DNA from: a phage
Length of the DNA stretch: 64,000 nt
NCBI GenBank assembly: GCA_025812035.1
Contig: GCA_025812035.1_4719.1
Strand: one strand, 5' to 3'
The position numbers and the translations under genes are program-made. The notes below the pieces were generated by a model that searched no databases, was not told the DNA's origin, and worked only from the letters and a program-made list of their open reading frames with translations. Below, one piece after another: positions 2,158 to 47,300 of this stretch (positions are counted from its first letter, which is position 1; every line of letters begins with the position of its first letter).

Positions 2158-3474
2158 TTAACCTTTGGTATAAGCGTTAACGAGAGTGTTGATGAATGAA
2201 GTCAATGCACGAAGATATTGATAAGCGAATTGGTTTTCAAGGCGGTTCTCTTTACCACAAAGTAGAATCGCGCGTTTAACGAGCTTAGGATAGATCTCGA
2301 CGTACGGTTGATAGCTTGTATCAAAATTCTGCTCGTTGAAGCGTTTCATGGTGATTTCCTGGATACGCTCCATGGTGCGAATTTTATTGCGAGAGAACAT
2401 CTCAGAGAAAGCACGTCCACGTTTTGTTACCATCAGCAAATCTTTCGCGAACGTAAGTTGTCGAACACTACGTAATTCGTCAGGTGTTGGCAGGACGTAT
2501 GTTTCTGGATCGCTATCCCATTCAACATCTTCAACGACGATATCCAAGTCAAGGTAGTGTTTAACCGCATCGATGATATTGTCTTTTGACGCATCGAATT
2601 CTTTCAGGAAGACCGCCCCGTTGATGTAACGGATGCGTTTCCCGGAAACCGTTGGAGTGATAACGTCAGCACCTTCCACGGAACCGCGATTTTCCAGTGT
2701 CGATTTGACAGCGTTTAAGAAAGACAGATAATCAACGGGAAGTTTTTCAACCTTATCTAAATGGAAGTCGATGATGTTTAATCCTAACCCATCAATAACC
2801 GAATAGCCGTCCGATTTAAGGAACATCTGATTGAAGGTTTCGATGTTGCTTTTCAGCGCGTCTACACCCCCAACTTTGTTACGGTTAGGGAAAAGCGTCC
2901 GCCACCCCGCTTTAAACGCAACCTCTTTATTTTCCTTGTATTTGCCTTTGGGCATCTGTTCGAGGGCCGCAACGGCTTTCTGAAAATTGCGTGTTTCGTC
3001 GTAAACAAGATGGGTAAGCTTCTCGAAGGCCGCTGCCAGGGTCAGGGCAATATCAACTATGATATCCCAGATCTTTTTCATGGCTTTTACAACGGTGTCC
3101 TTAAACCCTTCAACAACCAAAGCTTCTCCAACTTCAACACGATCGGTTGGAGCTAACAGTGTTTCAGAGGGTAGACCCAAGGCAATCGATGCGGATTCTT
3201 GAACGTTACGAACCAATGCAACGTCGCTGTAATTGGCCGATTCGATCGTCGGGGCAACATCAAAACTGATTTCCCGTAACGCCTCAACAGCAGGGAAAGC
3301 ACGATCAAGCGCATCCTCATGTTCGTCGATTGTCACCAAACGTAATTCAACGCCGTCCGCGTCGATGACTTCAGCTGTCGGTTCCACAGCAAGTGCTTCG
3401 GCAACGACGGGATCTTTTTCAAAAGCTTCAAGGCTAATATCGCCTTGTGTTTTAAATAGTGGTATACGTACCAT
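2158..3474 (-). CDS. Paralog family protein, ~438 aa (putative internal head/ejection protein)
   Basis: ORF track 2158..3498; start moved to Met-9 (MVRIPLFKTQ) which follows GGAGA and lies downstream of hairpin ~3523-3554. Module YSDVALVRNVQESASIALG ... LVVEGF. Confidence 0.6.
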   Translation of the reverse strand: MVRIPLFKTQGDISLEAFEKDPVVAEALAVEPTAEVIDADGVELRLVTIDEHEDALDRAFPAVEALREISFDVAPTIESANYSDVALVRNVQESASIALGLPSETLLAPTDRVEVGEALVVEGFKDTVVKAMKKIWDIIVDIALTLAAAFEKLTHLVYDETRNFQKAVAALEQMPKGKYKENKEVAFKAGWRTLFPNRNKVGGVDALKSNIETFNQMFLKSDGYSVIDGLGLNIIDFHLDKVEKLPVDYLSFLNAVKSTLENRGSVEGADVITPTVSGKRIRYINGAVFLKEFDASKDNIIDAVKHYLDLDIVVEDVEWDSDPETYVLPTPDELRSVRQLTFAKDLLMVTKRGRAFSEMFSRNKIRTMERIQEITMKRFNEQNFDTSYQPYVEIYPKLVKRAILLCGKENRLENQFAYQYLRALTSFINTLVNAYTKG

Positions 3475-3522
3475 GTGTTGTCTCCAGTAACAATTCAAAA
3501 GATAAACCAGAACGGCATAAAC

Positions 3523-3554
3523 CCCTCTCCCAACCCGTAAGGGAAGGGAGAGGG
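3523..3554 (-). terminator. GNRA-loop hairpin, family copy 2 (CCCTCTCCC-AACCC-GTAA-GGGAA-GGGAGAGGG)
   Basis: Same architecture with compensatory changes in the outer stem; 3' of the gene ending at 3577. Confidence 0.6.
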
Positions 3555-3576
3555 AATATATCAGTTTATTAACCGA

Positions 3577-4905
3577 TTATTGCTGTGCTGCGTCAGCCGG
3601 TTTCTCAGCCGCCTGGCCGCCGTACTCTTTCAGCATTTTAGCAGCGCCATCCAGTACAGCATTACCTGCCTGAACACCGTACTTCATCAGGCCGGTCTGC
3701 GGATTCACGTAGCAGGAACGTGCGTCTTTCAGAGCAGACAGTACAGCTTGAACACGCTGTTTTTCCTGAGCGGAAACTTCGCCTTTCTTAGACAGATCAG
3801 CTTCCATATCGTCGCCGAATTTAACAGCGTCTTTGAAGCCCTGGGATTTCTTACCGATGTTGCCTTTCAGCGCCAGCAGTTTGTCAGCCAGTACTTCAAC
3901 ACTGCTAACTGCGGCAGCCAGCTGATTCAGAGACAGTACAGTTGCTTCAACTTCTTTCGCTTCACCGGAACGTTCCCAGGTTACTTTACCGTCGTTGGTT
4001 TTGAAACCCCAACCCGCCGGGCCAGCAACGTCAGCAATCGCCGGTGCGTTCAGTTTATCTGCGTACTCGGTGTGGGACTTAGCAACAACGGTGTTGACGA
4101 ATTTATCAGCACGGTCGTCAGCAGCCTTCATTGCTTTCTCGAAGGTGTCAGCGATTTTAGTTGCACCGGTAACCAGATCGTCACCGCCGATATAACCTGA
4201 AACGCCGCTACCCAGTTTAACTTTGGCATTTTTAGCAGCGCCTTTACGTTTGGCGATCATTTCTTTCAGTTTAGCGGCACGTGCTTTCAGTTTGGTTGCG
4301 CCGTCGAAGATACGATCCATGAACTTCACGAAGGTTTCCCAGGAAGTTTTCAGGAAGTTCTTGATGGTTGCCCACAGTTTCTGCCACCATTTTTGTTCTT
4401 CCAGGAAGATCATGTTGGTTGCATCGTAACGGGAAGCGGAGCCACCGAAGCTTTCGAAGGACGGCATGGTTTCCGGCAGTTTGAAACCGATAGTACCACA
4501 CAGGCGTTTCAGGTTACGCATGTGTTCCTGAGCGGTTTGTGCAGACATACCACCGTCTTTCAGGTAGCTTTCGGTTGCAACAACGGTTTCCGTCAGTTCG
4601 TCCATGGCTTCGTCCATGGCTTCTGCGGTTTCGTCGTCTTTTGCAATTTCGATAACAACAGCATCAACCTGCTCGATATCGCCACGAACTTCGATAGCCA
4701 GTTCGGTTTCAGCTGCGGTATCTTCAGCGATTTCAGCGCGTTCGGTCAGTTCAGCTACAACGGTTTCATCATCTGCTGCTGCTGCGGCATCAGCTGCCGG
4801 TTCTGCTTCAACGGTTGCCGCTGCATCCGGATCGATCTCAGCAGCCAGTTGAACCAGCTGTGCGTTAGATGGATTTGCGACAAGACGATCAAAAATAGAA
4901 GGCAT
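3577..4905 (-). CDS. Paralog family protein, 442 aa, Ala/Asp/Glu-rich N-terminus (putative internal/scaffold-like protein)
   Basis: Long ORF with AAAGGA SD; strongly acidic Ala-rich N-terminal ~100 aa; central region similar to the neighbouring paralogs. Confidence 0.6.
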   Translation of the reverse strand: MPSIFDRLVANPSNAQLVQLAAEIDPDAAATVEAEPAADAAAAADDETVVAELTERAEIAEDTAAETELAIEVRGDIEQVDAVVIEIAKDDETAEAMDEAMDELTETVVATESYLKDGGMSAQTAQEHMRNLKRLCGTIGFKLPETMPSFESFGGSASRYDATNMIFLEEQKWWQKLWATIKNFLKTSWETFVKFMDRIFDGATKLKARAAKLKEMIAKRKGAAKNAKVKLGSGVSGYIGGDDLVTGATKIADTFEKAMKAADDRADKFVNTVVAKSHTEYADKLNAPAIADVAGPAGWGFKTNDGKVTWERSGEAKEVEATVLSLNQLAAAVSSVEVLADKLLALKGNIGKKSQGFKDAVKFGDDMEADLSKKGEVSAQEKQRVQAVLSALKDARSCYVNPQTGLMKYGVQAGNAVLDGAAKMLKEYGGQAAEKPADAAQQ

Positions 4906-35391: not shown

Positions 35392-38004
35392 TTATGCGTC
35401 CGGCGTAAAATCAAAAGGAACGTCCGTACGAATGATATCATAGCGTTTTCCTAAGAAATAGAACTCCTCGGGGACCTGACCGGGAACAATACTATCGCCG
35501 ATGAACTGCGGATATGCCCAGATGTACTGAGTGAGTCCTTCGAACATATCCAGGTTATTTGCGTGGTTACCCATGATACGTTTCCAAAGTTCGCGTTTAT
35601 ACGGTGTTTTAACATCGAACCCATAAAGCGGTGCAAGATCCACACCAGGCACAAATCCCAGGTAGTAGTGGATCTGACTGACCGGGAAACCAAGCGTATC
35701 TCGCGGAATGGTGATCGCTTGCTCAGCCTTGGTGACATGCGTCTCAATAATCCAGTCGTAGCACTCCGAATAGAACCGATCGAATTTCTCTGGATTATAC
35801 CACGCTTTGGGAAGATTCAATTTCTCCGTAAAATCGTTCGACATGATCGTCGGCAAGAAAGGAAGTATGCCCGTCTTTATTTGCGTGTATTTTGATTTTA
35901 CGCGATTTACCAGATTCCAACAAGCATAACCGAGCTGATCGTTACAGAACTCAACGTACAGATCGTAATCCCCTCCCGATAATGGATTATTAATATCACC
36001 GATATCAGCTGCGTATTTGTTGGGGTATCGTGTATTAAATGCCAGTTTGGTTTGGTAATCGTAAATGCACGGTTTATTGTTCTTCGTGTTAATCCACCAC
36101 CATGGCTCACCTACCTGCACGCAAATGTCCTGGACATGAGGATAGATAATATCAGCAAATGCTGTTAACACATCCCCTAACCACGCCATCGCATGTTGGT
36201 TACATGGAGACAACAACCAAGACGGTGGCGTATATCCGGTTGCTGCTATGTTTCCTTCCCAATCCTGCTGCGCCCACTCGAATGGACACGCTGTACTCAT
36301 CAATTCGTAACTTAAACTGATGGTGACAGAGAAATGGTGTTTTGCGGCGTATGCAGCAAAGGCTTCATGCCATGCAATACAGGGTGGATTTAGTACATCT
36401 GTGGTGTTCACCAGTAACTTACCCGCACTTGGTGTCCAGACAGTATCGTAGAAATGCGACATTCCGACATAGTGCACTAATTCATCCTGATAACCCGCAT
36501 ACACCAGGTTTTCAAATACACGCTCTGGCGTGATGTTGTAATGGTCATCATAAGCGGTTATTGCACGAAGCTCATGCGGTGTGCAACGGTGACGATTAAC
36601 CGTCATTTCCTGGTACACCCCATCGATAGGAAGAATCTCGATGGTTAAACCAAGATCGATCGGCGTTTCCAGATAGGTCGTTTCTGTAGCACCTTCTTTA
36701 TAATGTCGAGAACTCATGCTGAACATCAACGATGTTACCGATTCAAGTTCGATGGGTTCGTCAGCATAGAACCCCGCCATCGCATCGTTGAAATCGATCG
36801 TCACGGTCGCACTCGTACCGTCTTTAGAAACGTCGGTTGCATATCGGGTTAATGAGATATACTGGCGACTATCGTCTTTGTGAACGACGGTTAAAACCGG
36901 TGGGTTTTCAGTATCAGCAAAATTACGCTGGTCGCCAGTAAACGTGATCTTCGCTTTAAAGATCAAACCGAATAACGACGTCATGGGGGCATACGCAACG
37001 CAACCATGATCCAGTGTATCCGTTGTTCGCCATTCTATCCCGACCAACCCGTTAGCGGTATGACATCGCATATACGCGTTAAGTACCATGTCTTCACTGA
37101 CAACCGCGAAGTTCTCTGTTGACTGACCGTTGATAATCCAATACATCGGTTGCCAAAGATTACGAGTACCTTTTGCATAGCGGTAGGTTGGCGCGCCTTT
37201 TGGGTTGCCGTTATTAAGATGGAATACAGCAGTACCTTGGTAGTGATCGTTCGTATTAATCGGAACGCTGTAAGCGTCACCGATATCCGTACGTTCGACC
37301 TTAGCGACTGTTGCGTTTTCAAACAGTCCACGTAGCGTAGGAAGACCAATATCTTCAGGCGCGTTTTCTCGACGAATCGCATCCGCGATGCGATGGGCTA
37401 AGGCGGGGTAAATGACTTCACCTTGTTGCAGGTTCGCAAGCCCTGCGAAACGATCGGGGTCGATGCCAGCAATCAATAACTCGACATCACCCTTCGTTCT
37501 ATCGTCGCGGAGGTATTTCAGTCCAGTAAGATCGAGATGTCGAATTAACGACAACAGATCGTACTTACGGTTTTCAACAGTCAGTTCGAGATCACCTGCC
37601 CAAACCAAACTTCCCTCATCCGCCGCTACTCTAACGGATTGTCGGCCTGTGGTAGATGTTGTTGTCGTTTTATTTAATTGCTCTTGTAGGAAGTCGGTTG
37701 CGAGGTCAAAGGCAACGCCGTAACGGTCAGCGACGGCTTGCATGATTTCACGTAACTGGGTATCTTCTTCAATGATAATCTTGACAGGTATTCCCAAGAA
37801 CGCTTTAGTGAGGTCCCGCTTAACCATCGAGACGAATACGGATTTGTAATACCGGCTTCCATCTTTCCCTTTAAAAAGAATGGAAGTTGTTTCGGGTGAC
37901 GATAGAACACGTGCAAATTCAACATCGTCGAATGTAAGAGAAAGTCCGTTTTTCTCGTTGGTTAATCTTAATATTTCATTTTGCGCGGTTTCATGTAACT
38001 TCAT
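35392..38004 (-). CDS. Putative tail fibre / receptor-binding protein, 870 aa
   Basis: N-terminal ~100 aa (KRDLTKAFLGIPVKIIIEED...YGVAFDLATDFL) shared with the 44028 and 44712 proteins; unique long C-terminus; sits in the fibre cluster. Confidence 0.55.
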   Translation of the reverse strand: MKLHETAQNEILRLTNEKNGLSLTFDDVEFARVLSSPETTSILFKGKDGSRYYKSVFVSMVKRDLTKAFLGIPVKIIIEEDTQLREIMQAVADRYGVAFDLATDFLQEQLNKTTTTSTTGRQSVRVAADEGSLVWAGDLELTVENRKYDLLSLIRHLDLTGLKYLRDDRTKGDVELLIAGIDPDRFAGLANLQQGEVIYPALAHRIADAIRRENAPEDIGLPTLRGLFENATVAKVERTDIGDAYSVPINTNDHYQGTAVFHLNNGNPKGAPTYRYAKGTRNLWQPMYWIINGQSTENFAVVSEDMVLNAYMRCHTANGLVGIEWRTTDTLDHGCVAYAPMTSLFGLIFKAKITFTGDQRNFADTENPPVLTVVHKDDSRQYISLTRYATDVSKDGTSATVTIDFNDAMAGFYADEPIELESVTSLMFSMSSRHYKEGATETTYLETPIDLGLTIEILPIDGVYQEMTVNRHRCTPHELRAITAYDDHYNITPERVFENLVYAGYQDELVHYVGMSHFYDTVWTPSAGKLLVNTTDVLNPPCIAWHEAFAAYAAKHHFSVTISLSYELMSTACPFEWAQQDWEGNIAATGYTPPSWLLSPCNQHAMAWLGDVLTAFADIIYPHVQDICVQVGEPWWWINTKNNKPCIYDYQTKLAFNTRYPNKYAADIGDINNPLSGGDYDLYVEFCNDQLGYACWNLVNRVKSKYTQIKTGILPFLPTIMSNDFTEKLNLPKAWYNPEKFDRFYSECYDWIIETHVTKAEQAITIPRDTLGFPVSQIHYYLGFVPGVDLAPLYGFDVKTPYKRELWKRIMGNHANNLDMFEGLTQYIWAYPQFIGDSIVPGQVPEEFYFLGKRYDIIRTDVPFDFTPDA

Positions 38005-38026
38005 TGAAAACCTCAGCCTTTTAGAA

Positions 38027-38668
38027 TTAGATGTACTGCTTACCGCCCACGAAGGAAGTCAGCCAGTTCCCTGAAACAAGCTGCGATACCCAACCGGGTA
38101 CCGCTCTACCATTCTGGCTCATGATGTTACCACACCAACCAGGGAATCCGGGACGGATATAATAGAAAGTTAAATTGTAGAGATGGCAATTCCACACCGC
38201 AACGTTATGTTTACCAGAAACCGCTTTAAAGACAAACGCAACGGGTAAAGGCGACGATAGCAATTCGGTCACAGGGACGGCTGACCAATTCGCATTCGCG
38301 TTCCACGGTTGCCAGGTATGGCTACGCGAGTCGCAAAATACGTTACCGTTGTTACCGCGCCCACCCGCATTCCACCACAGCGACGGACTCATGTTCTTAA
38401 GTGAGGTAAATTGCTGCGGTGGAATATTAGGAATAATAACAGGGTTGGTACCTTGCCCATGTTTCTTTTCTTTTGCGTTCACATACCCGCTTATCGATTC
38501 GAGGTATTTGACACCAGGATAATTGTTCTGGACTTGTGTCGCAATATCACGAACATCAAACGTCCAGCAGATCATGGTGTTGTAGTAAGCATCGGTGTTG
38601 TCGTACCATGCGTTACCATCTTGTAAACGTGCGCCACTATTCGGTGTTTTATCTGTGTTTATAGCCAT
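38027..38668 (-). CDS. Hypothetical protein, 213 aa, conserved-C-terminus pair member A
   Basis: C-terminal ~40 aa (FYYIRPGFPGWCGNIMSQNGRAVPGWVSQLVSGNWLTSFVGGKQYI) nearly identical to the 38780 protein; N-terminus divergent. Confidence 0.55.
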   Translation of the reverse strand: MAINTDKTPNSGARLQDGNAWYDNTDAYYNTMICWTFDVRDIATQVQNNYPGVKYLESISGYVNAKEKKHGQGTNPVIIPNIPPQQFTSLKNMSPSLWWNAGGRGNNGNVFCDSRSHTWQPWNANANWSAVPVTELLSSPLPVAFVFKAVSGKHNVAVWNCHLYNLTFYYIRPGFPGWCGNIMSQNGRAVPGWVSQLVSGNWLTSFVGGKQYI

Positions 38669-38770
38669 GGTATTGTCCTATACGTTGACGGTTGAGATGT
38701 CGGATGCCGGATGTGTGTTGTCATCCGGTGGTACGTACAGAAACACCCACAGATAAAACAGTAGCTTCTC

Positions 38771-38793
38771 TAACTTCAATTAAATTGAAGTTA
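38771..38793. promoter_or_regulatory. 23-bp palindrome TAACTTCAATT-A-AATTGAAGTTA overlapping a stop codon
   Basis: Perfect 11-bp inverted arms at the 3' end of the 38780 gene, adjacent to a second hairpin (CCGGATG...CATCCGG). Confidence 0.35.
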
Positions 38794-39496
38794 GATATTG
38801 TTTACCTCCAACAAACGACGTTAACCAATTACCTGAAACAAGTTGCGATGCCCAGCCAGGCACTGCCCTACCGTTCTGGCTCATCACGTTACCTGCCCAT
38901 CCCGGAAAACCCGGCCGGAAAATATATACTTGAATATGTGTTAAAGCGTTATCATTACCACCGCCAACAGCAACGTTACGACTCCCAGATGACGGGAAAT
39001 ATTCTTTTAAGAACAGAGGATCGGTTGCTAATAAAGATGCGGGCCAAGGGTTCGCGGATGCATCAACATCGAATTCGGTCCATCGCCATTTACGTCCCGT
39101 GTCGAACCATGTCGATGTACCGCCTCCACGCACTGCAAGATTGCGTGCGTCGCGGGCATTGTAAATTGATTCGATGTTACGCCACCCACCTTTTGCGGCG
39201 TTTGCCGCATAGCAAATCGCATTACCACCATTCTTCTTTTCGTAAACAGTTCGTTTGATATGAACACGATCGATGAACGCTTCACCGTATTTGTTGACGA
39301 GCGTTTGTGCGATATCACGAAGATCGTGCATGTGAAAAGCGATGTCTTCGTTATGGAACCATGTTGTCGGGTTCCAGACGGTACCGTTTGGTTCGGCACA
39401 CATCGATCGGATATTGTTGCGTTGATTAACCGCGATAAAACCCATTGTATACCTCGTTCCTATTCTCAAAAAGGAAATTTCATACGATGACGCCAT
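38780..39496 (-). CDS. Hypothetical protein, ~238 aa, conserved-C-terminus pair member B
   Basis: ORF track 38780..39532 begins inside the hairpin; ATG (MASSYEISF) follows AAGGAGG that forms the hairpin 3' arm. Confidence 0.55.
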   Translation of the reverse strand: MASSYEISFLRIGTRYTMGFIAVNQRNNIRSMCAEPNGTVWNPTTWFHNEDIAFHMHDLRDIAQTLVNKYGEAFIDRVHIKRTVYEKKNGGNAICYAANAAKGGWRNIESIYNARDARNLAVRGGGTSTWFDTGRKWRWTEFDVDASANPWPASLLATDPLFLKEYFPSSGSRNVAVGGGNDNALTHIQVYIFRPGFPGWAGNVMSQNGRAVPGWASQLVSGNWLTSFVGGKQYLTSI

Positions 39497-39500
39497 AGCA

Positions 39501-39530
39501 GCTCCTCCTTCCCTTACGGGTTGGAGGAGC
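39501..39530 (-). terminator. GNRA-loop hairpin, family copy 5, inverted orientation; 3' arm carries the SD of the next gene
   Basis: Plus strand GCTCCTCC-TTCCC-TTAC-GGGTT-GGAGGAGC is the reverse complement of the other copies; 3' of the lipoprotein gene; minus-strand AAGGAGG lies 7 nt before the ATG at ~39496. Confidence 0.6.
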
Positions 39531-39538
39531 ATACTTAA

Positions 39539-40045
39539 TTACTCGCTGATAACCTCAACGGAATTGGGATCAGCGATCATCGCACGGTCAGTAGAACAAT
39601 TGAAGAAGACCATGCCGACACCATCGCCGTTCGAGTTCAGGGTTGAACTTACGTAAGACAGGGTTGGTTTATTCATGCGGTAGAAGCGTTCGCTGGTAGC
39701 GGTATTGAACCCCAGATCAACGTAGTCTTTCACCGTGGTATACAGCTGCGTGGATTCGAAGACGGTTACCGGAGAGTCAACGGTAAATTGACTACCTTCA
39801 TCCACAACCAGAACCTTATCGTTCCAGATTTCAGTGGTTGAAAACTTCGGTTTCCAATGTTCGAATTCCTGGGTTGCACCCCAGCAAGAATACACAGCAA
39901 GATTGCTGTTCTTCTCAACAGGTTTCAAACCCACCAGTTGTGTCAGGTCTTTATCCAGGTTCGGTAAGCCTTCCAGCGTAGCACACCCGCCCAGAGAAAG
40001 CACCATCAACATACCAAGAACGATCGCGCAAAGTTTCTTCATCAT
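39539..40045 (-). CDS. Putative lipoprotein, 168 aa (candidate superinfection-exclusion factor)
   Basis: Signal peptide with lipobox MLMVLSLGGC; immediately downstream of the fibre and Tfa genes. Confidence 0.65.
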   Translation of the reverse strand: MMKKLCAIVLGMLMVLSLGGCATLEGLPNLDKDLTQLVGLKPVEKNSNLAVYSCWGATQEFEHWKPKFSTTEIWNDKVLVVDEGSQFTVDSPVTVFESTQLYTTVKDYVDLGFNTATSERFYRMNKPTLSYVSSTLNSNGDGVGMVFFNCSTDRAMIADPNSVEVISE

Positions 40046-40086
40046 CGGATTTCCTTATATGTTAACGGAAGTGATTTCCATAGTAA

Positions 40087-40503
40087 TTACATAGCAGCAG
40101 GAAATTCCGGCCAATCGATATTTGGTGCAGCATCGGTATCGACAGCCGTCACGGCATCGATGTAATCCAAAACAGCATTAAGTTGAGTCGTTTCTTCCGG
40201 AGTCAGTTTTCGCCCAGCCCGTAATTTTAACTGAATAAGATCGATGGAAGCCAGCGCTGAATCAATCTTTGATTGTTTTATCTGTTCTGCCTCGGCGACG
40301 AGATCTTCGTGCTGCCGCTCGGGTTCAGGAGGCGCGATAAACTCGCCATCCGAGTATAACCAACCTATTCCAGGTGACACAGTTACCGCATCGCTAATAC
40401 TAACCAACTGTTGATTGTCGGATATATTGAGCTCTGCCTCACCATCGTAAACGATCGTGTTTACTACTACCCCATTTTCAATAACAGCGTATGATGTACT
40501 CAT
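40087..40503 (-). CDS. Tail fibre assembly chaperone (Tfa / P2 gpG-like), ~138 aa
   Basis: ORF track 40087..40527; start at MSTSYAVIENG overlapping the fibre stop (TAATG). C-terminal LTPEETTQLNAVLDYIDAVTAVD...NIDWPEFP is the Tfa signature. Confidence 0.8.
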   Translation of the reverse strand: MSTSYAVIENGVVVNTIVYDGEAELNISDNQQLVSISDAVTVSPGIGWLYSDGEFIAPPEPERQHEDLVAEAEQIKQSKIDSALASIDLIQLKLRAGRKLTPEETTQLNAVLDYIDAVTAVDTDAAPNIDWPEFPAAM

Positions 40504-43500
40504 TACATAAACTCCTCGATGATGCAAATCCCATTAGCACCACGCCCACCAGGCTTAGCGCTTCCTGAGAAAGAGTTGTCGTAAGCACCACCACCACCCG
40601 AACCAGGCGCGAGGCCGTTGTGGGCGGTGCCAACACCGGCGCGACCGCCACCGCCCCAATATGACGCACCCCCACACCCACCGACAGTAATAGTACCGGC
40701 TTGTCCGTCGCCACCGTCTCCGCCCGGAATGCGTATATCCCCGGTATTAGGTACGCCCCCATAGCCACCACCAGTGTTTGTGATAGTTGTTTTTCCTGCG
40801 CCTTGCCCGCCGGGAGCGGTTAGCAGGGATGCAAATTTACTATCCCCACCCCCGTTTCCAGATGTTGCTCCAGAGCCGCCGGAACCACCAGAACCAATTA
40901 CAACAGAATAACTAGTAGCTGATATCGTTATAACCGAAATTACTGTTCCACCGGCCCCACCGCCAGCACCAAAAAACGTTTCACCGTTGGAAAAAGCCTG
41001 GCAACCACCGCCACCGCCTCCACCACCGGTTATTGTTACTCTAATCCGTTTTGTTCCTTGTGTTGGGGTGTACGTCCCTGACGATGTGAAAACACGCATG
41101 TTCAGTAAACGTCCGACATATCCGCTAGAATCGGCTAAACCAAGATCTTTAGCTGCTAACGTGATATTAGCTGTACCGTCAAACGGTTTACCGTTAATCG
41201 TGCGCGCAGTCTGCAACTTCGTCGCCGTTGCTGCGTTTCCTGATGTATTCTGGTTTCCCGCGGCGTTAACACCCGGCAGATTGATGTTCGCACTACCGTC
41301 GAAAGACACCCCACCAATGGTGCGAGCTGTTTTCAGTTTTGTCGCCGTGGCAGCATTACCGGTCGTGTCTTGGTTACCGGTGGTGTTTACCCCAGGCAGG
41401 TTGATATTTGCCGTTCCGTTAAATGAAACACCACCAATCGTCCTTGCCGTTTGCAACTTCGTTGCGGATGCCGCATTCCCCGTGGTGTTTTGGTTACCCG
41501 TTGCATTCACGCCCGGGATACTATCCTTAGATGTGTAGATCTGTGCCCATTCCGACCAGTTCGAATCGGTTGCATCACGACGTGAACGTAGGTAAGCTGG
41601 AGCGTGTGCGCCCGCGGTACCTGACCACCCAATAAAGATCTCGCCTTCACCGACCGATGAAGCGCCTTTAAGATGAATGACGTTACCATAAGCGGTAGGA
41701 TATCCGTTATTGTACGCTTCATACATCTGGATGCCCGCATTGCTGCCCTGAGCTGTGTTAGCTAAAGCCGTAACACGACCTTTGGAGGCGAGAGCGGTAA
41801 TACTGAAGCTAATGTCCTTAGTACCGTCAAAGGCGACCCCATTAATCTTCCGTGCTGTTTGGAGTTTCGTGGCAGTAGCCGCATTACCAGAGGTACTCTG
41901 ATTACCTGCTTTGTTCACGCCTGGTAAATCAATGTTGGCTGTTCCATCAAAGGACACGCCCCCTATGGTTCTCGCCGTCTGAAGTTTTGTTGCTGAGCCA
42001 GCGTTTCCGGAAGTGCTTTGATTACCTGCCGCGTTGACACCCGGTAGGTTAATGCTAGCAGAACCATCAAAAGAAACTCCACCTATCGTGATCGGTGTTT
42101 TCAATTTCGTGGCTGTCGCGGCGTTACCCGTCGTATTCTGATTACCGGCTGCATTGACGCCAGGTAATGCGATATCGGCCGTACCGTCGAACGCGACACC
42201 ACCGATTTTACGGGCGGTTTGTAGCTTGGTCGCTGTAGCCGCGTTACCGCTGGTATTTTGCGTGCCCGCTTTATTTACACCGGGAAGATCGATGTTGGCA
42301 GAACCATCGAATCTGACGCCACCTATCGTTCTTGCAGTAGCAAGTTTAGCTGCTGTGGCTGCATTATTGCCCACTTTTAGCCAATCATCCCATGGACCAT
42401 CCTGGCCGTTCCACGACGCCGTTAAACCACGTACGTAAATATTGCCTGTACGTACAGTGTACCGTTGCATCCCACCGAATTGTCCGGCTGGGAGTACTTC
42501 AAGGTAACCTGCGGCATTTGCTTCAGGGAAATTGTGGGCGGCGTCCGCGTTCGTCGCTATTGGTTTAGACCAAATACCCACAGACGCTTCAACCGGACCG
42601 TAGGTATTCAGATTTGCGTCAGCAGGGAGTGGTCCTCGGAAACGCAGTAATTGTATTGGCGTTAACCCCAACGTTCTTTGCATTCCCTCGACACTCGATT
42701 GCGATAAAAGTGCCCGAGCTGTCGACGTGATGGTCGCTAAAGCAACCTTGTCGACTCCAGTGAAATAAGGGAATTTGTTCGCTGATGTCGCTAAACCTGA
42801 AAAGGCGGTCAGTAATGCATTAAGGGGTTGCTTCCCAGCTAACGCTTTCGTTACTGTCGTTGAGAAATTAGGATCACTTCCTATAGCTCGAGCCAGCTTA
42901 TTAAGCGTATTTAGCGCATCTGGAGACGAGTCAATCAACGACGTGATCGCACGCATCACAAATTCCGTGTTGGCAATCTGTCGACTGCTATTGTTAATTG
43001 CTGCGGTGGGTGTTGTTGGAGTACCGGTGAATACAGGACTATTAAGATCCGCCTTGAGAGCAATGAGGCGTTTAAGTGCTTCGACATCGACTTTCAGGTT
43101 TTCCCACCCGATGAGAGAACCGTCTCCGTTGGTATGATAACGGTTATACCAGAAGTCGCCGTTAACACCCCAAAAGAATATACCTTTCTCTTCGTTTTGC
43201 GGGCCGGAACTATTTCGCGATGAGCCGATATATTTGATTTCAATAAGACCCTCAAACACGACTCCCGGGATTATTTTGTTGTCTCCAGCTGACTGTACTA
43301 CTTGATAAACTCCAGGCGTTGCTGCTCTAACCCATGTTAAGAATTCCGTTATTCCAGCGGTGCCACTGAAACGCTTAACGTCGGTAAGTATCGCCCCATA
43401 ACCGAACATACCCGGTAACGCAACTCGTCCGCCGGTACGGTCACGAATATTTGAGGCAACGACGGGCAGCTTTTTACGAACGCTGTTAACCGCCTTAGGT

Positions 43501-44021
43501 GTGGCTGCTTTTGTCTCGTCATCGCTATCGATGGCGTTGCTCAGGATGGTCAGTCCTCGCTTATCTATGGTTGCGTCGGGAAGAAACGCGTTATCCAACA
43601 CTTTAAGCTGTACAGCGCTCGTGTTACTAACAACGAGATACATCTGGCAGTTAAGAACGCTGCTTGCGCCTTCAGTAGGAACAGGCTTGTATCTTTCCGG
43701 TGCGCTGCAGACAGCGACCAGAACACCTCGATCGTCATACAAGCCGATTTCGCGTACCCAGAATCCACCTTGGTTTACAGGAATAATACCCTCAACAATA
43801 ATCCTGGTTGTGTCGTCTGCGTCAACGCGGATGTTAGAAACTTCCCCGCGATAAACTTCGTGTACAAGGGCTGTTTGACTAGCATCGGGAGTTGGTGTAG
43901 AGCCGTTACCGTCACCAACGGCAAAATGTGTAATTTTTAGTTTCTCGCCGTCCGGAAGTAGTGCGGCGGCGATACGTTCAGTACCTTTATCGGTAATGAC
44001 CGTTCTATATGTTGTACTCAT
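40503..44021 (-). CDS. Long tail fibre protein, 1172 aa (P2 gpH / lambda Stf-like N-terminus, fibre repeats, Gly-rich C-terminal tip)
   Basis: N-terminus MSTTYRTVITDKG...HFAVGDGNG...GGFWVREIGLYDD...ETKAATPKAVNSV is P2 gpH-like; ~8 copies of a ~40-aa repeat (TARTIGGVSFDGSANINLPGVNAAGNQNTSGNAATATKLQ); C-terminal ~165 aa Gly-rich. Confidence 0.85.
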   Translation of the reverse strand: MSTTYRTVITDKGTERIAAALLPDGEKLKITHFAVGDGNGSTPTPDASQTALVHEVYRGEVSNIRVDADDTTRIIVEGIIPVNQGGFWVREIGLYDDRGVLVAVCSAPERYKPVPTEGASSVLNCQMYLVVSNTSAVQLKVLDNAFLPDATIDKRGLTILSNAIDSDDETKAATPKAVNSVRKKLPVVASNIRDRTGGRVALPGMFGYGAILTDVKRFSGTAGITEFLTWVRAATPGVYQVVQSAGDNKIIPGVVFEGLIEIKYIGSSRNSSGPQNEEKGIFFWGVNGDFWYNRYHTNGDGSLIGWENLKVDVEALKRLIALKADLNSPVFTGTPTTPTAAINNSSRQIANTEFVMRAITSLIDSSPDALNTLNKLARAIGSDPNFSTTVTKALAGKQPLNALLTAFSGLATSANKFPYFTGVDKVALATITSTARALLSQSSVEGMQRTLGLTPIQLLRFRGPLPADANLNTYGPVEASVGIWSKPIATNADAAHNFPEANAAGYLEVLPAGQFGGMQRYTVRTGNIYVRGLTASWNGQDGPWDDWLKVGNNAATAAKLATARTIGGVRFDGSANIDLPGVNKAGTQNTSGNAATATKLQTARKIGGVAFDGTADIALPGVNAAGNQNTTGNAATATKLKTPITIGGVSFDGSASINLPGVNAAGNQSTSGNAGSATKLQTARTIGGVSFDGTANIDLPGVNKAGNQSTSGNAATATKLQTARKINGVAFDGTKDISFSITALASKGRVTALANTAQGSNAGIQMYEAYNNGYPTAYGNVIHLKGASSVGEGEIFIGWSGTAGAHAPAYLRSRRDATDSNWSEWAQIYTSKDSIPGVNATGNQNTTGNAASATKLQTARTIGGVSFNGTANINLPGVNTTGNQDTTGNAATATKLKTARTIGGVSFDGSANINLPGVNAAGNQNTSGNAATATKLQTARTINGKPFDGTANITLAAKDLGLADSSGYVGRLLNMRVFTSSGTYTPTQGTKRIRVTITGGGGGGGGCQAFSNGETFFGAGGGAGGTVISVITISATSYSVVIGSGGSGGSGATSGNGGGDSKFASLLTAPGGQGAGKTTITNTGGGYGGVPNTGDIRIPGGDGGDGQAGTITVGGCGGASYWGGGGRAGVGTAHNGLAPGSGGGGAYDNSFSGSAKPGGRGANGICIIEEFM
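41140..41525 (-). repeat. Tandem ~117-bp coding repeats inside the tail fibre gene, block 2
   Basis: About three copies encoding the ~40-aa fibre repeat; near-identical DNA between copies. Confidence 0.7.
41795..42360 (-). repeat. Tandem ~117-bp coding repeats inside the tail fibre gene, block 1
   Basis: About 4.5 copies encoding TARTIGGVSFDG...NAATATKLQ-type repeats. Confidence 0.7.
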
Positions 44022-44027
44022 GGCGTT

Positions 44028-44555
44028 TTATCCCGGGTAAATAGTGATGGTGTCACCAACGAGGGTTGTGGCACCAGAGTAAAGATACGCTGGTGATGCT
44101 TCACGTTGGTTAGTCACGGTAAGATTCATTTGCCCACGCCAAACCATGGAGGTATTCGCGATGGGAATCAAGATCTTCTTGGAAGTATCGTCACGAAAAT
44201 TAATGGTGGTAGCAAGGGTAGCTGAATCAAAATCAACGTCAGGTTCAAAGATGAACCCGTATTGATCTGAAATAGCTTGAATGACCGCTCTTATAGTTGT
44301 TGTTTCAACCGACTCCAAAACGATTTTTATCGGTATTCCTAGAAACGCTTTCGCGATATCACGTCGTGTGTAAGTAATAAAACTCTCACCACACCACCTT
44401 GTTCCTTCATTTGCTGTGACGATCACTTTTGCCCTGTTAGCACCAGAACTCCCATCCAGGGTTAAAGTGAGATCGGAGTTACTGAATACGCTACTGTTAC
44501 GTTGGTTTATCAACGCAATCAGTTCGTCCTTCCACGGCGGGTAAAGTGAACGCAT
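44028..44555 (-). CDS. Short protein with the shared fibre N-terminal anchor domain, ~176 aa
   Basis: ORF track 44028..44576; start at MRSLYPPWKDE after GGAGGAGGG. YTRRDIAKAFLGIPIKIVLE...QYGFIFEPDVDF matches the N-termini of the 870-aa and LRR proteins. Confidence 0.55.
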   Translation of the reverse strand: MRSLYPPWKDELIALINQRNSSVFSNSDLTLTLDGSSGANRAKVIVTANEGTRWCGESFITYTRRDIAKAFLGIPIKIVLESVETTTIRAVIQAISDQYGFIFEPDVDFDSATLATTINFRDDTSKKILIPIANTSMVWRGQMNLTVTNQREASPAYLYSGATTLVGDTITIYPG

Positions 44556-44667
44556 AAGCGCACCCTCCTCCAACAATCAATTAAAATGCAAAACACCTCG
44601 AAACCAGAGTGCGATTCGAAGCAAGCGTAAACGGCCTGAACGACCGCATAAAATTCCGCGCATATTA

Positions 44668-44701
44668 CCCCCTCTACCCCGACAAAGCGAGGTAGAGGGA
44701 G
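44668..44701 (-). terminator. C-rich/G-rich hairpin
   Basis: CCCTCTACC-(12-nt loop)-GGTAGAGGG, 3' of the LRR fibre gene ending 44712. Confidence 0.5.
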
Positions 44702-44711
44702 AATAATACGA

Positions 44712-46466
44712 TTATGCTGCTACGTATCCAGGCCAACGTTCTCTTGGCCAGTTTGTTGCACCCTGTCCGACGGTGTCTTTACCAGAAATGACGTTACTTA
44801 CATCCCATCCACTCAGATCCTGATTGAATGCGGTGTTCTCGCGCATCATGAGATCGATCTTACGTAGTGAGTGGGTATTCCAACCAGATATGTCTTGGTT
44901 GAATGCTTTATTGTAGGCAAACATGTTAGACACGTTCTGTAATTTTGACGTGTTCCAACCACTGATGTCGCTATTGAACGACGTGCTTGAGAACATGCTG
45001 CTCGCATCAACAAGATTGTCGGTTTTCCAATTAACCACTTTATCGCCGTCAAATGCATTGCTGCTGCTGAACATAAAACTCATATTGCTAGCTTTGGACA
45101 CATCCCATTTATCTAACCCTTTACCGACGAACTCATTACATGCCGAGAACATCCAGCTCATATCGGTAACCCGACTCACGTTCCATTTGCTGAAGTCAAG
45201 GTTAAGTTTCTGACACCCTAAGAAGGTCTTATACATGTTGGTGATGCGACTAACATCCCACTCTTGGATGTTAGGGTCGTTAAGCGTCGTTAAGTAGTTG
45301 AACAATGTCGCTAACGACGTCCATTTCTCTGGAATCCGGTTTGGTACCGTACGAAGCGATGCAAGGTTGTTGGTTGACGGAGAGCAGAACATACCGTTAT
45401 CCCAATTTACGATTTCCGTAATTTTGGACCCTTTGATCGTCTGAGTGGTATTACCATCTTTCACTATACCCGTAGCAACGATGGTATATTCACCGGTGCC
45501 TGCATAATCGTGGGCGTAGGCACCGTTACTTGAGGTCTCCGTTACTTTATTCCCATCACCCCAATCGATATTAACTTTATCCCACCCACTTAGGTTGAAC
45601 TGTACTTTGCCTCCGGTAGCTTTTAGGATGTATTTACCTCCATTGTCGGTAAAATAGCAGACAACCATTGAACCGTACAGATTACCTATCCGCCAATCAT
45701 CCTTTTCTGTCACTGCGATTTGCGCTAAGCCACGCTGTACGAAGAGTACTGTGCGGTTCTCGTCAGTCTGTAATGTGGCTAATGCTTGGGCCTTATCGTC
45801 CTCGCTAATTTCATTAGCGCTCACTAAAACGCTTAACATTCTTTCGAAGTATTCGATGGGTAATTGACGTCCTACAGACTTATCAACCGACGGTTCAGCA
45901 AGATCGCCCAACGCTGCAGTGGTGGCCAGCATCAACGAACCCTTGGTCATATCTGTTTCTTGTAGGTAGTGCAGTCCTGTAATCTGGTACGCTTGAATAA
46001 TCGTAATCAGGTTCAGCGTATCGTTAACGACCTGTACTTGTAAATGTCCAGACCATACGTAGCTGCTTTCGGCAATTGGTAGTTCGACCGACTGGATACC
46101 TGATGTTTCAAAGGTGATCTTCTTGTTAAGATCGGTTTCCAGGAAATCAACAGCGAGGTCAAAATTTATACCGTACTTCTCAGCGATAGAATCCACGATG
46201 TTTCTGAAAGCAACGTCATTATTTACGATGAAACGTAATGGGATTCCTGCAAACGCTCTAGCAATGTCTCGACGAACATACGTGAGCGACTGCTCGAAGA
46301 AATAGGGGCTACCATCTCGCGGTTTAATGGTCACCTGACATACTTCGGGATATTCAGCTGGGATTAACGACACGAATTCAACATCGGATTCTTTCAATGA
46401 AAGCATATTCTTCCGGTTTACTAATGCCAGAAGATCGGCTTTCCAACCAGGATAAACTGTAGACAT
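44712..46466 (-). CDS. Putative receptor-binding protein with BspA/DUF285-type leucine-rich repeats, ~585 aa
   Basis: ORF track 44712..46550; start at MSTVYPGWKAD after GGAG. Shared N-terminal anchor; C-terminal repeats WNVSRVTDMSWMFSAC, WDVSKASNMSFMFSSS, WNTSKLQNVSNMFAYN, WDVSNV. Confidence 0.65.
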   Translation of the reverse strand: MSTVYPGWKADLLALVNRKNMLSLKESDVEFVSLIPAEYPEVCQVTIKPRDGSPYFFEQSLTYVRRDIARAFAGIPLRFIVNNDVAFRNIVDSIAEKYGINFDLAVDFLETDLNKKITFETSGIQSVELPIAESSYVWSGHLQVQVVNDTLNLITIIQAYQITGLHYLQETDMTKGSLMLATTAALGDLAEPSVDKSVGRQLPIEYFERMLSVLVSANEISEDDKAQALATLQTDENRTVLFVQRGLAQIAVTEKDDWRIGNLYGSMVVCYFTDNGGKYILKATGGKVQFNLSGWDKVNIDWGDGNKVTETSSNGAYAHDYAGTGEYTIVATGIVKDGNTTQTIKGSKITEIVNWDNGMFCSPSTNNLASLRTVPNRIPEKWTSLATLFNYLTTLNDPNIQEWDVSRITNMYKTFLGCQKLNLDFSKWNVSRVTDMSWMFSACNEFVGKGLDKWDVSKASNMSFMFSSSNAFDGDKVVNWKTDNLVDASSMFSSTSFNSDISGWNTSKLQNVSNMFAYNKAFNQDISGWNTHSLRKIDLMMRENTAFNQDLSGWDVSNVISGKDTVGQGATNWPRERWPGYVAA

Positions 46467-46620
46467 AAGCACTCCAATCATGGGGCGGTAACCGCACCCA
46501 ACGGTTAAATTGTCGATTATGGTCGTTGCTGATAAGACGACCATAACCAACGATGTTTAATATGTAGTATATTGATATCATGACGTTATGGGGATCTAAG
46601 TCATACCATGGAGACGGCGA

Positions 46621-46671
46621 AAAAAAAAAGAAAATAGGAAAACGGTGTTCATCCTTTTAGGGATGAACACC
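46621..46671 (-). terminator. Rho-independent terminator (hairpin plus U-tract)
   Basis: Minus-strand GGTGTTCATCC-loop-GGATGAACACC followed by T-rich run (plus-strand A-run 46621-46640); 3' of the gene ending 46692. Confidence 0.7.
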
Positions 46672-46691
46672 GCGTACCATTTGTAAGACGA

Positions 46692-47300
46692 TTAACGAGG
46701 AATCAGATCGTTAAGCTCTTCTTCTTCGATAACAAAGAAGCTGTTCTGGTTGTCTAAATCTGATAACAGGACTTGCCCAACAGTGAAGCAAGTTCCACCC
46801 TTCTTAGGCATCCATACCGGCTCATTCGTTACCTTATCAGGATACCATTTGAAACGGTTGGTATCTAAGAAGAACGCAGCTTTGTTCTCCTTGTCGGTAG
46901 AACGATAGCTAACCAGCGCTGGCCACTCAATCCAGGTATTTGTACATGGTACATGTAAAGGATACCATGCGCGCCAGCGCTTACCAGGACGTTTCGGATC
47001 CTCCCAATATTCAGCGGTTAGCACGGCGTTCTTATATTGTTTCTGTACCAGCATCTCAAGAACAGATTCATTACCGATTGGTAAACGCACCAACTCTCTT
47101 TCGACGTGTGATGAATCTAAAGTCACTTCAGCCATATAAAGAGATTTAGGTAATCCAGCCTGTTTTGTGGGTGGTATTACGACACCGGTAACCAACGGTC
47201 TGCTCGGTTTACGTTTCTGTTCTTTCCGATGCGTGTAAAGGAATAACCCTACAGCTACGACAACAAGTATAATAAACAACACTATCTTAATCCAGCTCAT
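46692..47300 (-). CDS. Membrane-anchored protein, 202 aa
   Basis: N-terminal hydrophobic helix IKIVLFIILVVVAVGLFLY then basic stretch; hairpin plus T-run terminator downstream. Confidence 0.55.
   Translation of the reverse strand: MSWIKIVLFIILVVVAVGLFLYTHRKEQKRKPSRPLVTGVVIPPTKQAGLPKSLYMAEVTLDSSHVERELVRLPIGNESVLEMLVQKQYKNAVLTAEYWEDPKRPGKRWRAWYPLHVPCTNTWIEWPALVSYRSTDKENKAAFFLDTNRFKWYPDKVTNEPVWMPKKGGTCFTVGQVLLSDLDNQNSFFVIEEEELNDLIPR

Follow-up and report, generated by a model that had tools for sequence, protein, structure and literature searches.

Two candidate host-recognition systems, a P1/P2-type tail fibre and DUF7941 plug proteins, in a variable module of a Goslar-like jumbo phage

The 64,000-nucleotide (nt) stretch of phage DNA analysed here (contig GCA_025812035.1_4719.1 of assembly GCA_025812035.1; hereafter, the window) carries a gene cluster at 35392-46466 in which three proteins of 870, 584, and 175 amino acids (aa) begin with the same domain, DUF7941 (Pfam PF25613), and lie on either side of a tail fibre and its Tfa chaperone. 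An earlier note on this DNA had read the cluster as a host-range module with several alternative receptor-binding proteins on one common anchor. We consider it likely that the cluster combines two systems: a conventional P1/P2-type fibre with Tfa, plus DUF7941 plug proteins that display different distal binders on baseplate-anchored filaments. The fibre, of the P1 gpS/P2 gpH type and horizontally shared, would bind the lipopolysaccharide (LPS) outer core. The shared N-terminal domain of ~150 aa, with the fold of the phiKZ protein gp127 that caps the outermost peripheral-baseplate arm, would mount its carriers there directly or via chains; in the model published for Escherichia phage vB_EcoM_Goslar, neighbouring DUF7941 proteins are joined by docking of one protein's linker (plus C-terminal subdomain) on the other's N-terminal domain, head to tail, which gives flexible filaments. 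The domain could then act as a universal plug for an N4 gp64/gp65-type TIM-barrel module, a beta-sandwich with a DUF285 solenoid, or a bare tail peptide, and the distal domains may bind host surface glycans or proteins, widening or speeding adsorption. Our analysis contributes the homology, the gp127 fold (for the two proteins modelled), the domain architecture, purifying selection on all three genes, and gain, loss, and recombination among relatives, while virion association of the Goslar orthologs, gp22 filaments, and LPS dependence are taken from papers.

The window shares 90.5-91.9% nucleotide identity with Goslar over most of its length, with collinear genes, and Goslar was the sole megablast match to our queries (the module region and the first 25 kb of the window). 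The window therefore represents a close but distinct relative of Goslar, which is the type species of Goslarvirus and a 237-kb nucleus-forming jumbo myovirus, and by sequence the window phage is a Goslarvirus. The source is a nucleus-forming jumbo myovirus of E. coli, family Chimalliviridae, and the module presumably a late-expressed host-recognition cluster. All module genes lie on the minus strand, in the transcription order 584 aa, 175 aa, fibre, Tfa, 168 aa, 221/250 aa, 213 aa, and 870 aa. Mechanically called open reading frames (ORFs) extend further 5', and the internal ATG starts used for the three DUF7941 proteins agree with the Goslar annotation and with relatives.

The similarity of the three N-termini, on which the earlier note's proposal depended, held up in alignment. 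All three proteins exceed the Pfam gathering score of 27 for DUF7941 (142.2 bits for the 870-aa protein, 63.9 for the 175-aa protein, and 78.9 for the 584-aa protein), and all pairs are significant by BLASTP: 41% identity over 170 aa between the 870- and 584-aa proteins (E 3e-37), 30% over 145 aa between the 870- and 175-aa proteins (E 1e-22), and 32% over 150 aa between the 175- and 584-aa proteins (E 2e-26). Real pairs scored 82-135 bits vs a maximum of 24 bits for shuffled pairs (100 per pair), so that chance similarity was ruled out by shuffles and E-values alike. The motifs first quoted for the domain were also found; (Y)xRRDIAxAFxGIP reads MVKRDLTKAFLGIP in the 870-aa protein, and YGxxF[DE] occurs in all three. 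The shared region, put at ~100 aa in the earlier note, is in fact larger: about 150 aa of globular domain plus a linker, or ~170-190 aa between the 870- and 584-aa proteins. These two contain the linker motif L..I....LTGL.YL, which is missing from the 175-aa protein, and the Pfam match in the 870-aa protein reaches residue 277. A search of 472 six-frame ORFs in the window with two profiles, one built from the paralogs and one from 64 family members, found no DUF7941 copies beyond these three.

Structure prediction, proposed earlier as a check, agrees with this for the 175- and 584-aa proteins, two of the three. Their AlphaFold2 models (made with alignments) share one alpha/beta N-terminal domain, after which comes a segment of low confidence, and their distal parts differ. 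For both models, the sole significant Foldseek match in the PDB was 9xqd_0, residues 1-150 of phiKZ gp127 (E 4e-7 and template modelling (TM) score 0.65 for the 175-aa protein; E 3e-5 and TM 0.66 for the 584-aa protein; 149/150 residues aligned). By sequence, the link to gp127 is weak (profile E 0.31; identity 13-20%). In the phiKZ atlas, each of the six star lobes has one gp127, placed where the band of gp139 dimers ends, a band that connects the wedges with the periphery; the gp127 model is an AlphaFold3 prediction docked in a 4.4-4.7 Å map. Together with gp126 and gp143, gp127 belongs to the outer peripheral baseplate (PDB 9XQD). It is like the shared domain in fold and is seated at the gp139 arm tip, but unlike the window proteins, it is 290 aa long and consists of DUF7941 only, with no distal binding domain. 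Membership in the DUF7941 class is thus indicated by the sequence match of all three proteins, by the gp127-type fold and flexible segment of the two modelled, and by their being encoded by a chimallivirus.

The domain is widespread in related phages. There were 78 viral fold matches in BFVD, and all of those with an organism name come from phiKZ-like jumbo phages. An exhaustive profile search yielded 254 representative clusters in which the domain nearly always starts at residues 1-20. Family sizes cluster at ~160-195 aa and 270-300 aa, and the longest member has 1537 aa. Distant long members carry C-terminal DUF285 and BspA leucine-rich repeat (LRR_5) domains, and one has a T-even Gp38 adhesin domain.

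Goslar itself has at least 10 DUF7941 paralogs, of whose types the window module has only a subset: gp22, gp23, gp31, gp33, gp34, gp86, gp91, gp92, gp93, and gp161 (Basu et al., bioRxiv 10.64898/2026.04.21.720040). According to that preprint, they are laid out as an N-terminal domain, then a linker that is disordered, followed by a C-terminal domain; docking head to tail is predicted by AlphaFold, filaments of purified gp22 were seen by negative-stain electron microscopy, and the phiKZ gp126-gp127 dimer was fitted in the peripheral baseplate density of Goslar. From this, its authors proposed a "DUF7941 fibre cloud" of filaments with carbohydrate-binding, glycoside hydrolase, and LRR domains (bioRxiv 10.64898/2026.04.21.720040). 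The shared domain, first taken for a passive anchor, is therefore a module that the preprint proposes to polymerise head to tail. The window proteins agree with the Goslar family in Pfam domain, N-terminal position, and neighbourhood, with orthologs of gp86 and gp91 and a gp161 paralog of the same architecture. They differ in that the window has the gp161-like gene in the fibre cluster where Goslar has gp093 and gp092, a pair that is deleted in the window with a scar left behind; in addition, the window has an extra gp087 paralog and fewer fibre repeats (1172 vs 1324 aa).

Copy numbers bear on how such proteins are mounted. By mass spectrometry, Table S4 of the preprint estimates, per virion, 4.5 copies of gp86, 4.9 of gp92, and 4.8 of gp93 (range 3-7.7), 1.2 of gp91, 111 of gp161, 577 of gp22, and 2144 of gp23, next to 43 of the fibre gp90, 52 of the Tfa protein gp89, and 19 of gp87 (bioRxiv 10.64898/2026.04.21.720040). 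The main rival to filaments is fixed-site attachment, the classical multi-fibre model of the earlier note, in which independent receptor binders would occupy fixed baseplate sites in six copies each, with no polymerisation, and serve host switching. The ~5-copy estimate, near six, fits this model, including for the 870-aa protein, as does the presence in phiKZ of exactly one gp127, whose fold the N-terminal domain matches, per star lobe; the distal domains also differ and vary between relatives. We nevertheless regard it as unlikely: gp22 polymerises in vitro, the copies of gp23, gp22, and gp161 (the 584-aa protein being a gp161 paralog) far exceed any set of fixed sites, 10 paralogs would compete for the one gp127-type site known per lobe, and on the screened E. 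coli host Goslar has no requirement beyond the LPS core. The same design logic of a conserved N-terminal assembly domain with divergent C-termini on clustered paralogs is seen in the hetero-hexameric phiKZ fibres gp131-gp135. The branched multi-tailspike phages CBA120 and G7C likewise use paralogous N-termini. Both of these differ from DUF7941 proteins in fold and family; they make a fixed bundle or branch, whereas DUF7941 proteins are proposed to link up head to tail. Pfam and PHROG scans of the module revealed no gp10-like or XD-type adaptor domains.

Several observations count against plug proteins on filaments, the reading we prefer. The ~5 copies of gp86, gp92, and gp93 fit six fixed baseplate sites at least as well as filaments, and since the Goslar preparation also held non-virion assemblies (chimallin, PhuZ), detection at low copy says little about incorporation. 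The ~8 Å map of the Goslar peripheral baseplate showed no DUF7941 density (bioRxiv 10.64898/2026.04.21.720040), and for that phage the filament model and the gp126-gp127 fit are putative. Because the phiKZ gp127 model is itself a docked prediction, our fold match is partly one of prediction vs prediction. The Pfam match in the 584-aa protein spans profile positions 12-183 of 276, leaving it without a Pfam-recognisable DUF7941 C-terminal subdomain, and the 175-aa protein is short of ~21 aa of the canonical linker; donation of a docking segment by either protein is putative. Finally, Goslar screens found only LPS-core genes, so DUF7941 binders are either not required or redundant on the screened host.

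The 870-aa protein (35392..38004) is the ortholog of Goslar gp086 (96% aa identity) and has three Pfam regions (142, 41, and 283 bits). DUF7941 (aa 2-277, nt 37174-38001, 142.2 bits) is followed by NCTSP_N (aa 285-442, nt 36679-37152, 41.4 bits, cut-off 27) and an N4-sheath-type TIM barrel (aa 476-837, nt 35494-36579, 283.3 bits, cut-off 27). Residues 528-786 align with N4 gp64 (PDB 9lc0_M, E 4e-29) and residues 483-543 with residues 379-441 of N4 gp65 (E 1e-6); a PDB sequence search gave no match to the C-terminal domains D9-D10 of gp65, which hold the N4 tail plug. In phage N4, gp64 and gp65 form the non-contractile sheath as a heterodimer (PDB 9LC0, 9YF4), and gp65 is the receptor-binding protein. 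The N4 sheath shares NCTSP_N and the TIM barrel with the 870-aa protein, but it is arranged six-fold around a podovirus tail tube, whereas here the module follows a DUF7941 plug in one fused protein and the jumbo phage has a contractile tail, and no NfrA dependence has been reported for Goslar. The link is one of domain homology and not of sheath membership. The protein is 96-97% identical in five relatives and 86% in L007.

The 584-aa protein (44712..46466, start MSTVYPGWK) is a paralog of Goslar gp161 (46% identity over 445 aa). Its N-terminal domain (aa 1-150, nt 46017-46466) leads into a linker, and AlphaFold2 and Pfam together outline a helical/beta region (178-273), a beta-sandwich (276-354), and a DUF285 solenoid (~360-584) in a model with a mean predicted local distance difference test (pLDDT) score of 87.8 and values >90 over residues 360-580. 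As the earlier note had it, one protein carries the DUF285/BspA repeats, and it is this one (Pfam, 151.8 bits in two stretches); the TIGR02167 PARCEL repeat (52.6 bits) was the sole NCBIfam match of the scan. Neither the solenoid nor the middle beta-sandwich had a significant solved-structure match by Foldseek against the PDB. The sandwich gave weak matches below gathering scores to PKD (E 0.024) and CBM_25 (E 0.009), and weak Foldseek matches to CBM86/CBM32 (E 0.16-0.34). There are ~50 orthologs with 70-94% identity, on contigs of up to ~248 kb; conservation among 50 of them is highest in the N-terminal domain (0.88-0.94) and lowest at residues 276-325 (0.66-0.69), and segment-wise synonymous divergence (dS) in the gene indicates mosaic exchange. 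An exact-sequence look-up of the protein returned no record.

The 175-aa protein (44028..44555; start MRSLYPPWK, as in gp091) is the ortholog of Goslar gp091 (83% aa identity), with a stop codon 6 nt upstream of where the fibre begins. The AlphaFold2 model (pLDDT 85.6) has a globular N-terminal domain (1-153) and a low-confidence tail (154-175); these 22 residues are predicted disordered yet conserved. The earlier note had suspected a truncated remnant of a longer protein. If the ORF were a decaying, functionless remnant of a longer DUF7941 receptor-binding gene, the lack of a distal domain and the bare detection of Goslar gp091 (~1.2 copies, 2 peptides) would be explained. However, its length is fixed at 175-176 aa in all of ~28 full-length ortholog clusters, down to 59% identity (59-99% overall); the ratio of nonsynonymous to synonymous substitution rates (dN/dS) lies at 0.11-0.22, and between two allele classes the synonymous sites have reached saturation; the C-terminal peptide (V/I)GD(T/I)ITIYPG is conserved, its last ten residues as strongly as the core; and the protein matches phrog_2935, a family of ~180-aa proteins, end to end. 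Moreover, no size class of the family is commoner than that of members with the N-terminal domain only, among them gp23, the most abundant Goslar paralog. We therefore reject a pseudogene and give a remnant next to no credence; the protein appears from these comparisons to be functional, and it may be a filament chain end or an adaptor.

The second system, a P2 gpH-like fibre and Tfa between the DUF7941 genes, was Pfam-confirmed at 40087-44021, as the earlier note had proposed. The fibre (40503..44021; 1172 aa, of the P1 gpS/P2 gpH type, ortholog of Goslar gp090) has a collar-type N-terminus, repeats, and a glycine-rich tip, with Pfam matches to Phage_tail_fib (PF12571, 151.4 bits), Phage_fiber_2 (PF03406, 39.5 bits), and Gly_rich_2; its repeats match those of P1/P7 gpS and other coliphage fibres at 71-77% nt identity. 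The 138-aa Tfa chaperone (40087..40503) matches Caudo_TAP (PF02413, 74.3 bits) and PHROG tail fibre assembly families, and its start overlaps the fibre stop codon. The module shares with P1 gpS/P2 gpH and Tfa systems the collar-type N-terminus, the Phage_fiber_2 repeats, the downstream overlapping Tfa, and nucleotide similarity, and, likewise, the exchange of tip and chaperone as a unit and an LPS-core receptor in Goslar and P1. Unlike those systems, this fibre belongs to a chimallivirus and has a glycine-rich tip (Gly_rich_2), and no invertible segment was noted. In P1, a cin-like invertible segment is a known route to fibre variation; here, neither an invertible segment nor a diversity-generating mechanism turned up in family scans and locus comparisons, none of which was a search aimed at either.

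Two observations concern the fibre repeats and Tfa. The repeats (window 41150-42650, minus strand) cross-match each other at 64-72% nt identity, and relatives differ in how many copies they carry, with fibres of 834 to 1324 aa, a variation that is likely due to slippage or unequal recombination in the shaft. In Goslar virions, Tfa (~52 copies) is about as abundant as the fibre (~43), which suggests that Tfa stays bound to the mature fibre.

Genome-wide screens identified the LPS outer core GluII as the receptor of Goslar and GluIII as that of P1. Since the fibre is P1/P7 gpS-like and both phages use the LPS core, the fibre is the most probable candidate for primary receptor binding to the screened E. 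coli host, and it would bind the LPS outer core. The idea of alternative receptor-binding proteins thus stands in that a variable module adjoins the fibre, but the DUF7941 proteins are probably accessory and not alternative primary binders, because Goslar's genetically defined receptor, the LPS outer core, would suit the P1-like fibre.

Comparison with relatives supports the view of the cluster as a variable host-recognition module, in that gene sets and fibre tips differ between genomes. Seven genomes have seven gene configurations around a core of the 870-, 213-, and 168-aa genes, which are present in 7/7 and nearly invariant; a divergent block (65-85% identity) is made up of the 202-, 584-, and 175-aa genes together with the N-terminus of the fibre. 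Also variable are a gp093-type gene (273-276 aa) and a gp092-type gene (~1197 aa), whose product has an N-terminal DUF7941 domain detectable with a broader profile. L006 and L007 have both of these along with the 584- and 175-aa genes and therefore carry five DUF7941 genes in the module; neither has Tfa. The L006 fibre has 1106 aa and a different tip, and this genome has no 220-255-aa paralog of the 213-aa protein; the L007 fibre has 1268 aa and a weak Peptidase_S74 match, and its paralog has 255 aa. Goslar has the gp093-type, gp092-type, and 175-aa genes, a 1324-aa fibre with a Gly-rich tip, and Tfa, and lacks the paralog; at the position equivalent to that of the 584-aa gene, exactly the ORF is missing, and its ribosome-binding site (RBS) is retained.

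The remaining genomes have no gp093-type gene. In the window, the gp092-type gene is also gone, and the 584- and 175-aa genes are accompanied by a 1172-aa fibre with a Gly-rich tip, Tfa, and a paralog of 221/250 aa; L003 has the same set with a 221-aa paralog. L004/L005, also without the gp092-type gene, have the 584- and 175-aa genes, an 834-aa fibre with a different tip, no Tfa, and a 220-aa paralog. In the window, the loss of the gp092-type gene has left a scar (46467..46520, minus strand) consisting of the last ~13 nt and stop codon of that gene, its 3' hairpin, and then the RBS of the 584-aa gene; a 44-nt blastn match to the 3' end of Goslar gp092 and the alignment with Goslar, L006, and L007 identify it. 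The window, Goslar, and L003, all of which have Tfa, share a fibre tip at 94% identity; in L004, L006, and L007, which do not have Tfa, the tip is unrelated (23-33%) and needs no separate chaperone of this kind. Tfa was found only in genomes with a Gly_rich_2 fibre tip and in the fibre-less L008; fibre tip and Tfa swap as a unit.

L008 (IMGVR_UViG_3300045988_173921) is a 182,865-bp IMG/VR contig with a rearranged stretch at 2475-4843 and three deletions, and the only locus found by an IMG/VR scan with the 584-aa protein. It keeps Tfa, the lipoprotein-like 168-aa gene, and the 213- and 870-aa genes, lacks the 220-255-aa paralog, and has gp092 cut to its C-terminal 457 aa. The fibre ORF is deleted precisely between the microhomology ATGAGTACA that is common to the fibre and Tfa starts. 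In place of separate 584- and 175-aa genes, it has a 176-aa hybrid in which residues 1-75 are of 584 type (88-92% identity) and residues 76-176 of gp091 type (97-98% to Goslar gp091). The crossover falls inside the shared YVRRDIAxAFxGIP motif, which is direct evidence that paralogous N-terminal domains recombine. As L008 is a single metagenomic contig, it could be a variant that is viable without a fibre, or else a defective or misassembled genome.

Altogether, the picture of a common anchor with swapped distal domains is partly right: there is a common N-terminal module, and the distal domains are unrelated, but we did not observe distal domains cleanly exchanged at the anchor boundary. The breakpoints found lie at ORF edges or inside the shared motif, and none is exactly at that boundary. 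Variation is mostly whole-ORF gain and loss plus mosaic recombination.

The pattern of variation also bears on whether DUF7941 proteins recognise hosts at all. They could be structural or decorative baseplate elements, or environmental adhesins for mucus, biofilm matrix, or debris, with the fibre alone setting host range, much as Ig-like capsid decorations have been proposed to act as environmental adhesins. Recovery of LPS-core genes only in the Goslar screens would agree with this, as would the near invariance of the 870-aa gene, which is unlike typical host-range determinants; its retention in L008, where the fibre and other members are lost; and the general use of DUF285/BspA-like and PKD-like modules in adhesion. 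Yet the 870-aa protein has a distal module with homology to the N4 sheath proteins, including the receptor-binding gp65, a distant family member has a T-even Gp38 adhesin domain, the 584-aa gene has the conserved-anchor, variable-distal, mosaic pattern typical of receptor-binding proteins, and the DUF7941 genes are embedded in a fibre cluster. We thus find a purely non-receptor role quite improbable.

If the DUF7941 proteins are plug proteins as we propose, a bolder extension suggests itself, which we offer tentatively and as a whole consider rather doubtful. The N-terminal domain might accept any binder, with the DNA of its core motif serving as a portable homology patch by which paralogs recombine and entire cassettes come, go, or fuse, while the 175-aa protein might couple the fibre to the baseplate. 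The latter idea comes from its conserved, non-canonical tail, its constant position 6 nt upstream of the fibre gene, and its co-divergence with the fibre N-terminus. Each Goslar-like phage would then carry its own combination of binders, a combinatorial host-recognition code.

Three small genes lie between Tfa and the 870-aa gene. The 168-aa protein (39539..40045), ortholog of Goslar gp088, has a signal peptide and lipobox (…LSLGGC; MMKKLCAIVLGMLMVLSLGGC), matches phrog_9559, and is 91-98% conserved in relatives. At ~737 copies per Goslar virion preparation (range 491-1158), gp088 is among the most abundant unmodelled proteins; the preprint gives it no predicted function and does not mention the lipoprotein signal (bioRxiv 10.64898/2026.04.21.720040). 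One possibility is a lipoprotein that masks receptors or excludes superinfection and co-purifies with membrane material; another is a virion protein that is lipidated.

The 213-aa protein (38027..38668), ortholog of Goslar gp087 (a virion-associated protein in that phage), is lineage-specific, with 95-100% conservation in relatives, only four clusters among 5.8 billion proteins, and no Pfam, PHROG, NCBIfam, or significant PDB match; a SPRY-domain identity (E 0.02-0.03) was discarded as weak. Its paralog (38780..39532, ORF of 250 aa) is 39% identical over 200 aa (E 2e-34), with the last 45 aa nearly identical, and likely starts at M30 (39445) to give 221 aa, as in relatives. This gene is a whole-ORF indel, absent in Goslar, L006, and L008 and 220-255 aa long in L003, L004, and L007; window positions 38721-39441 have no Goslar counterpart. 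A perfect 12-bp inverted repeat (TCTAACTTCAAT-TAA-ATTGAAGTTAGA, 38769-38795) overlaps the stop codon of this gene at the edge of the segment absent from Goslar and may be a terminator or a recombination site.

Upstream of the module lies the 202-aa gene (46692-47300, minus strand), a gp094 ortholog with an N-terminal transmembrane helix. Its conservation among relatives (69-85%) matches the divergence of the receptor-binding candidates, and the adjoining 249-aa gene is 78-92% conserved; the 202-aa gene may be functionally part of the variable block. A terminator-like hairpin with a 13-bp stem (46642..46673, minus strand), located 3' of the 202-aa gene and present as the same inverted repeat in Goslar, probably delimits the module's transcription unit at its 5' end. 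A sigma-70 promoter scan found fewer sites than shuffles (14 vs 22.5), a result that says nothing about a phage equipped with RNA polymerases of its own.

Complete RefSeq E. coli genomes contain no copy of the module region and so give no sign of a prophage or plasmid state there. Several orthologs of the 584-aa protein (P0002, P0013, and P0028) are filed with assemblies of Escherichia coli isolates, O157 among them, and some lie on contigs of ~159-236 kb; 142 sequences make up one ortholog cluster. It seems that E. coli cultures often carry Goslar-like phages along.

The DUF7941 family and its likely role have already been published for Goslar (2026 preprint). New here are whole-ORF gain and loss, swapping of the fibre tip, the 584/175 hybrid recombined within the shared motif, and a short paralog that appears functional. 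These concern how nucleus-forming jumbo phages find their hosts; in both published virion structures, resolution is poorest at the peripheral baseplate and the fibres. The DUF7941 host-recognition system emerges as a module that varies at the population level and in which deletions leave recognisable scars, so that natural variants can inform which cassettes are dispensable, which co-vary, and which tolerate chimeras. The shared domain could also serve as a plug for mounting engineered binders on jumbo phages.

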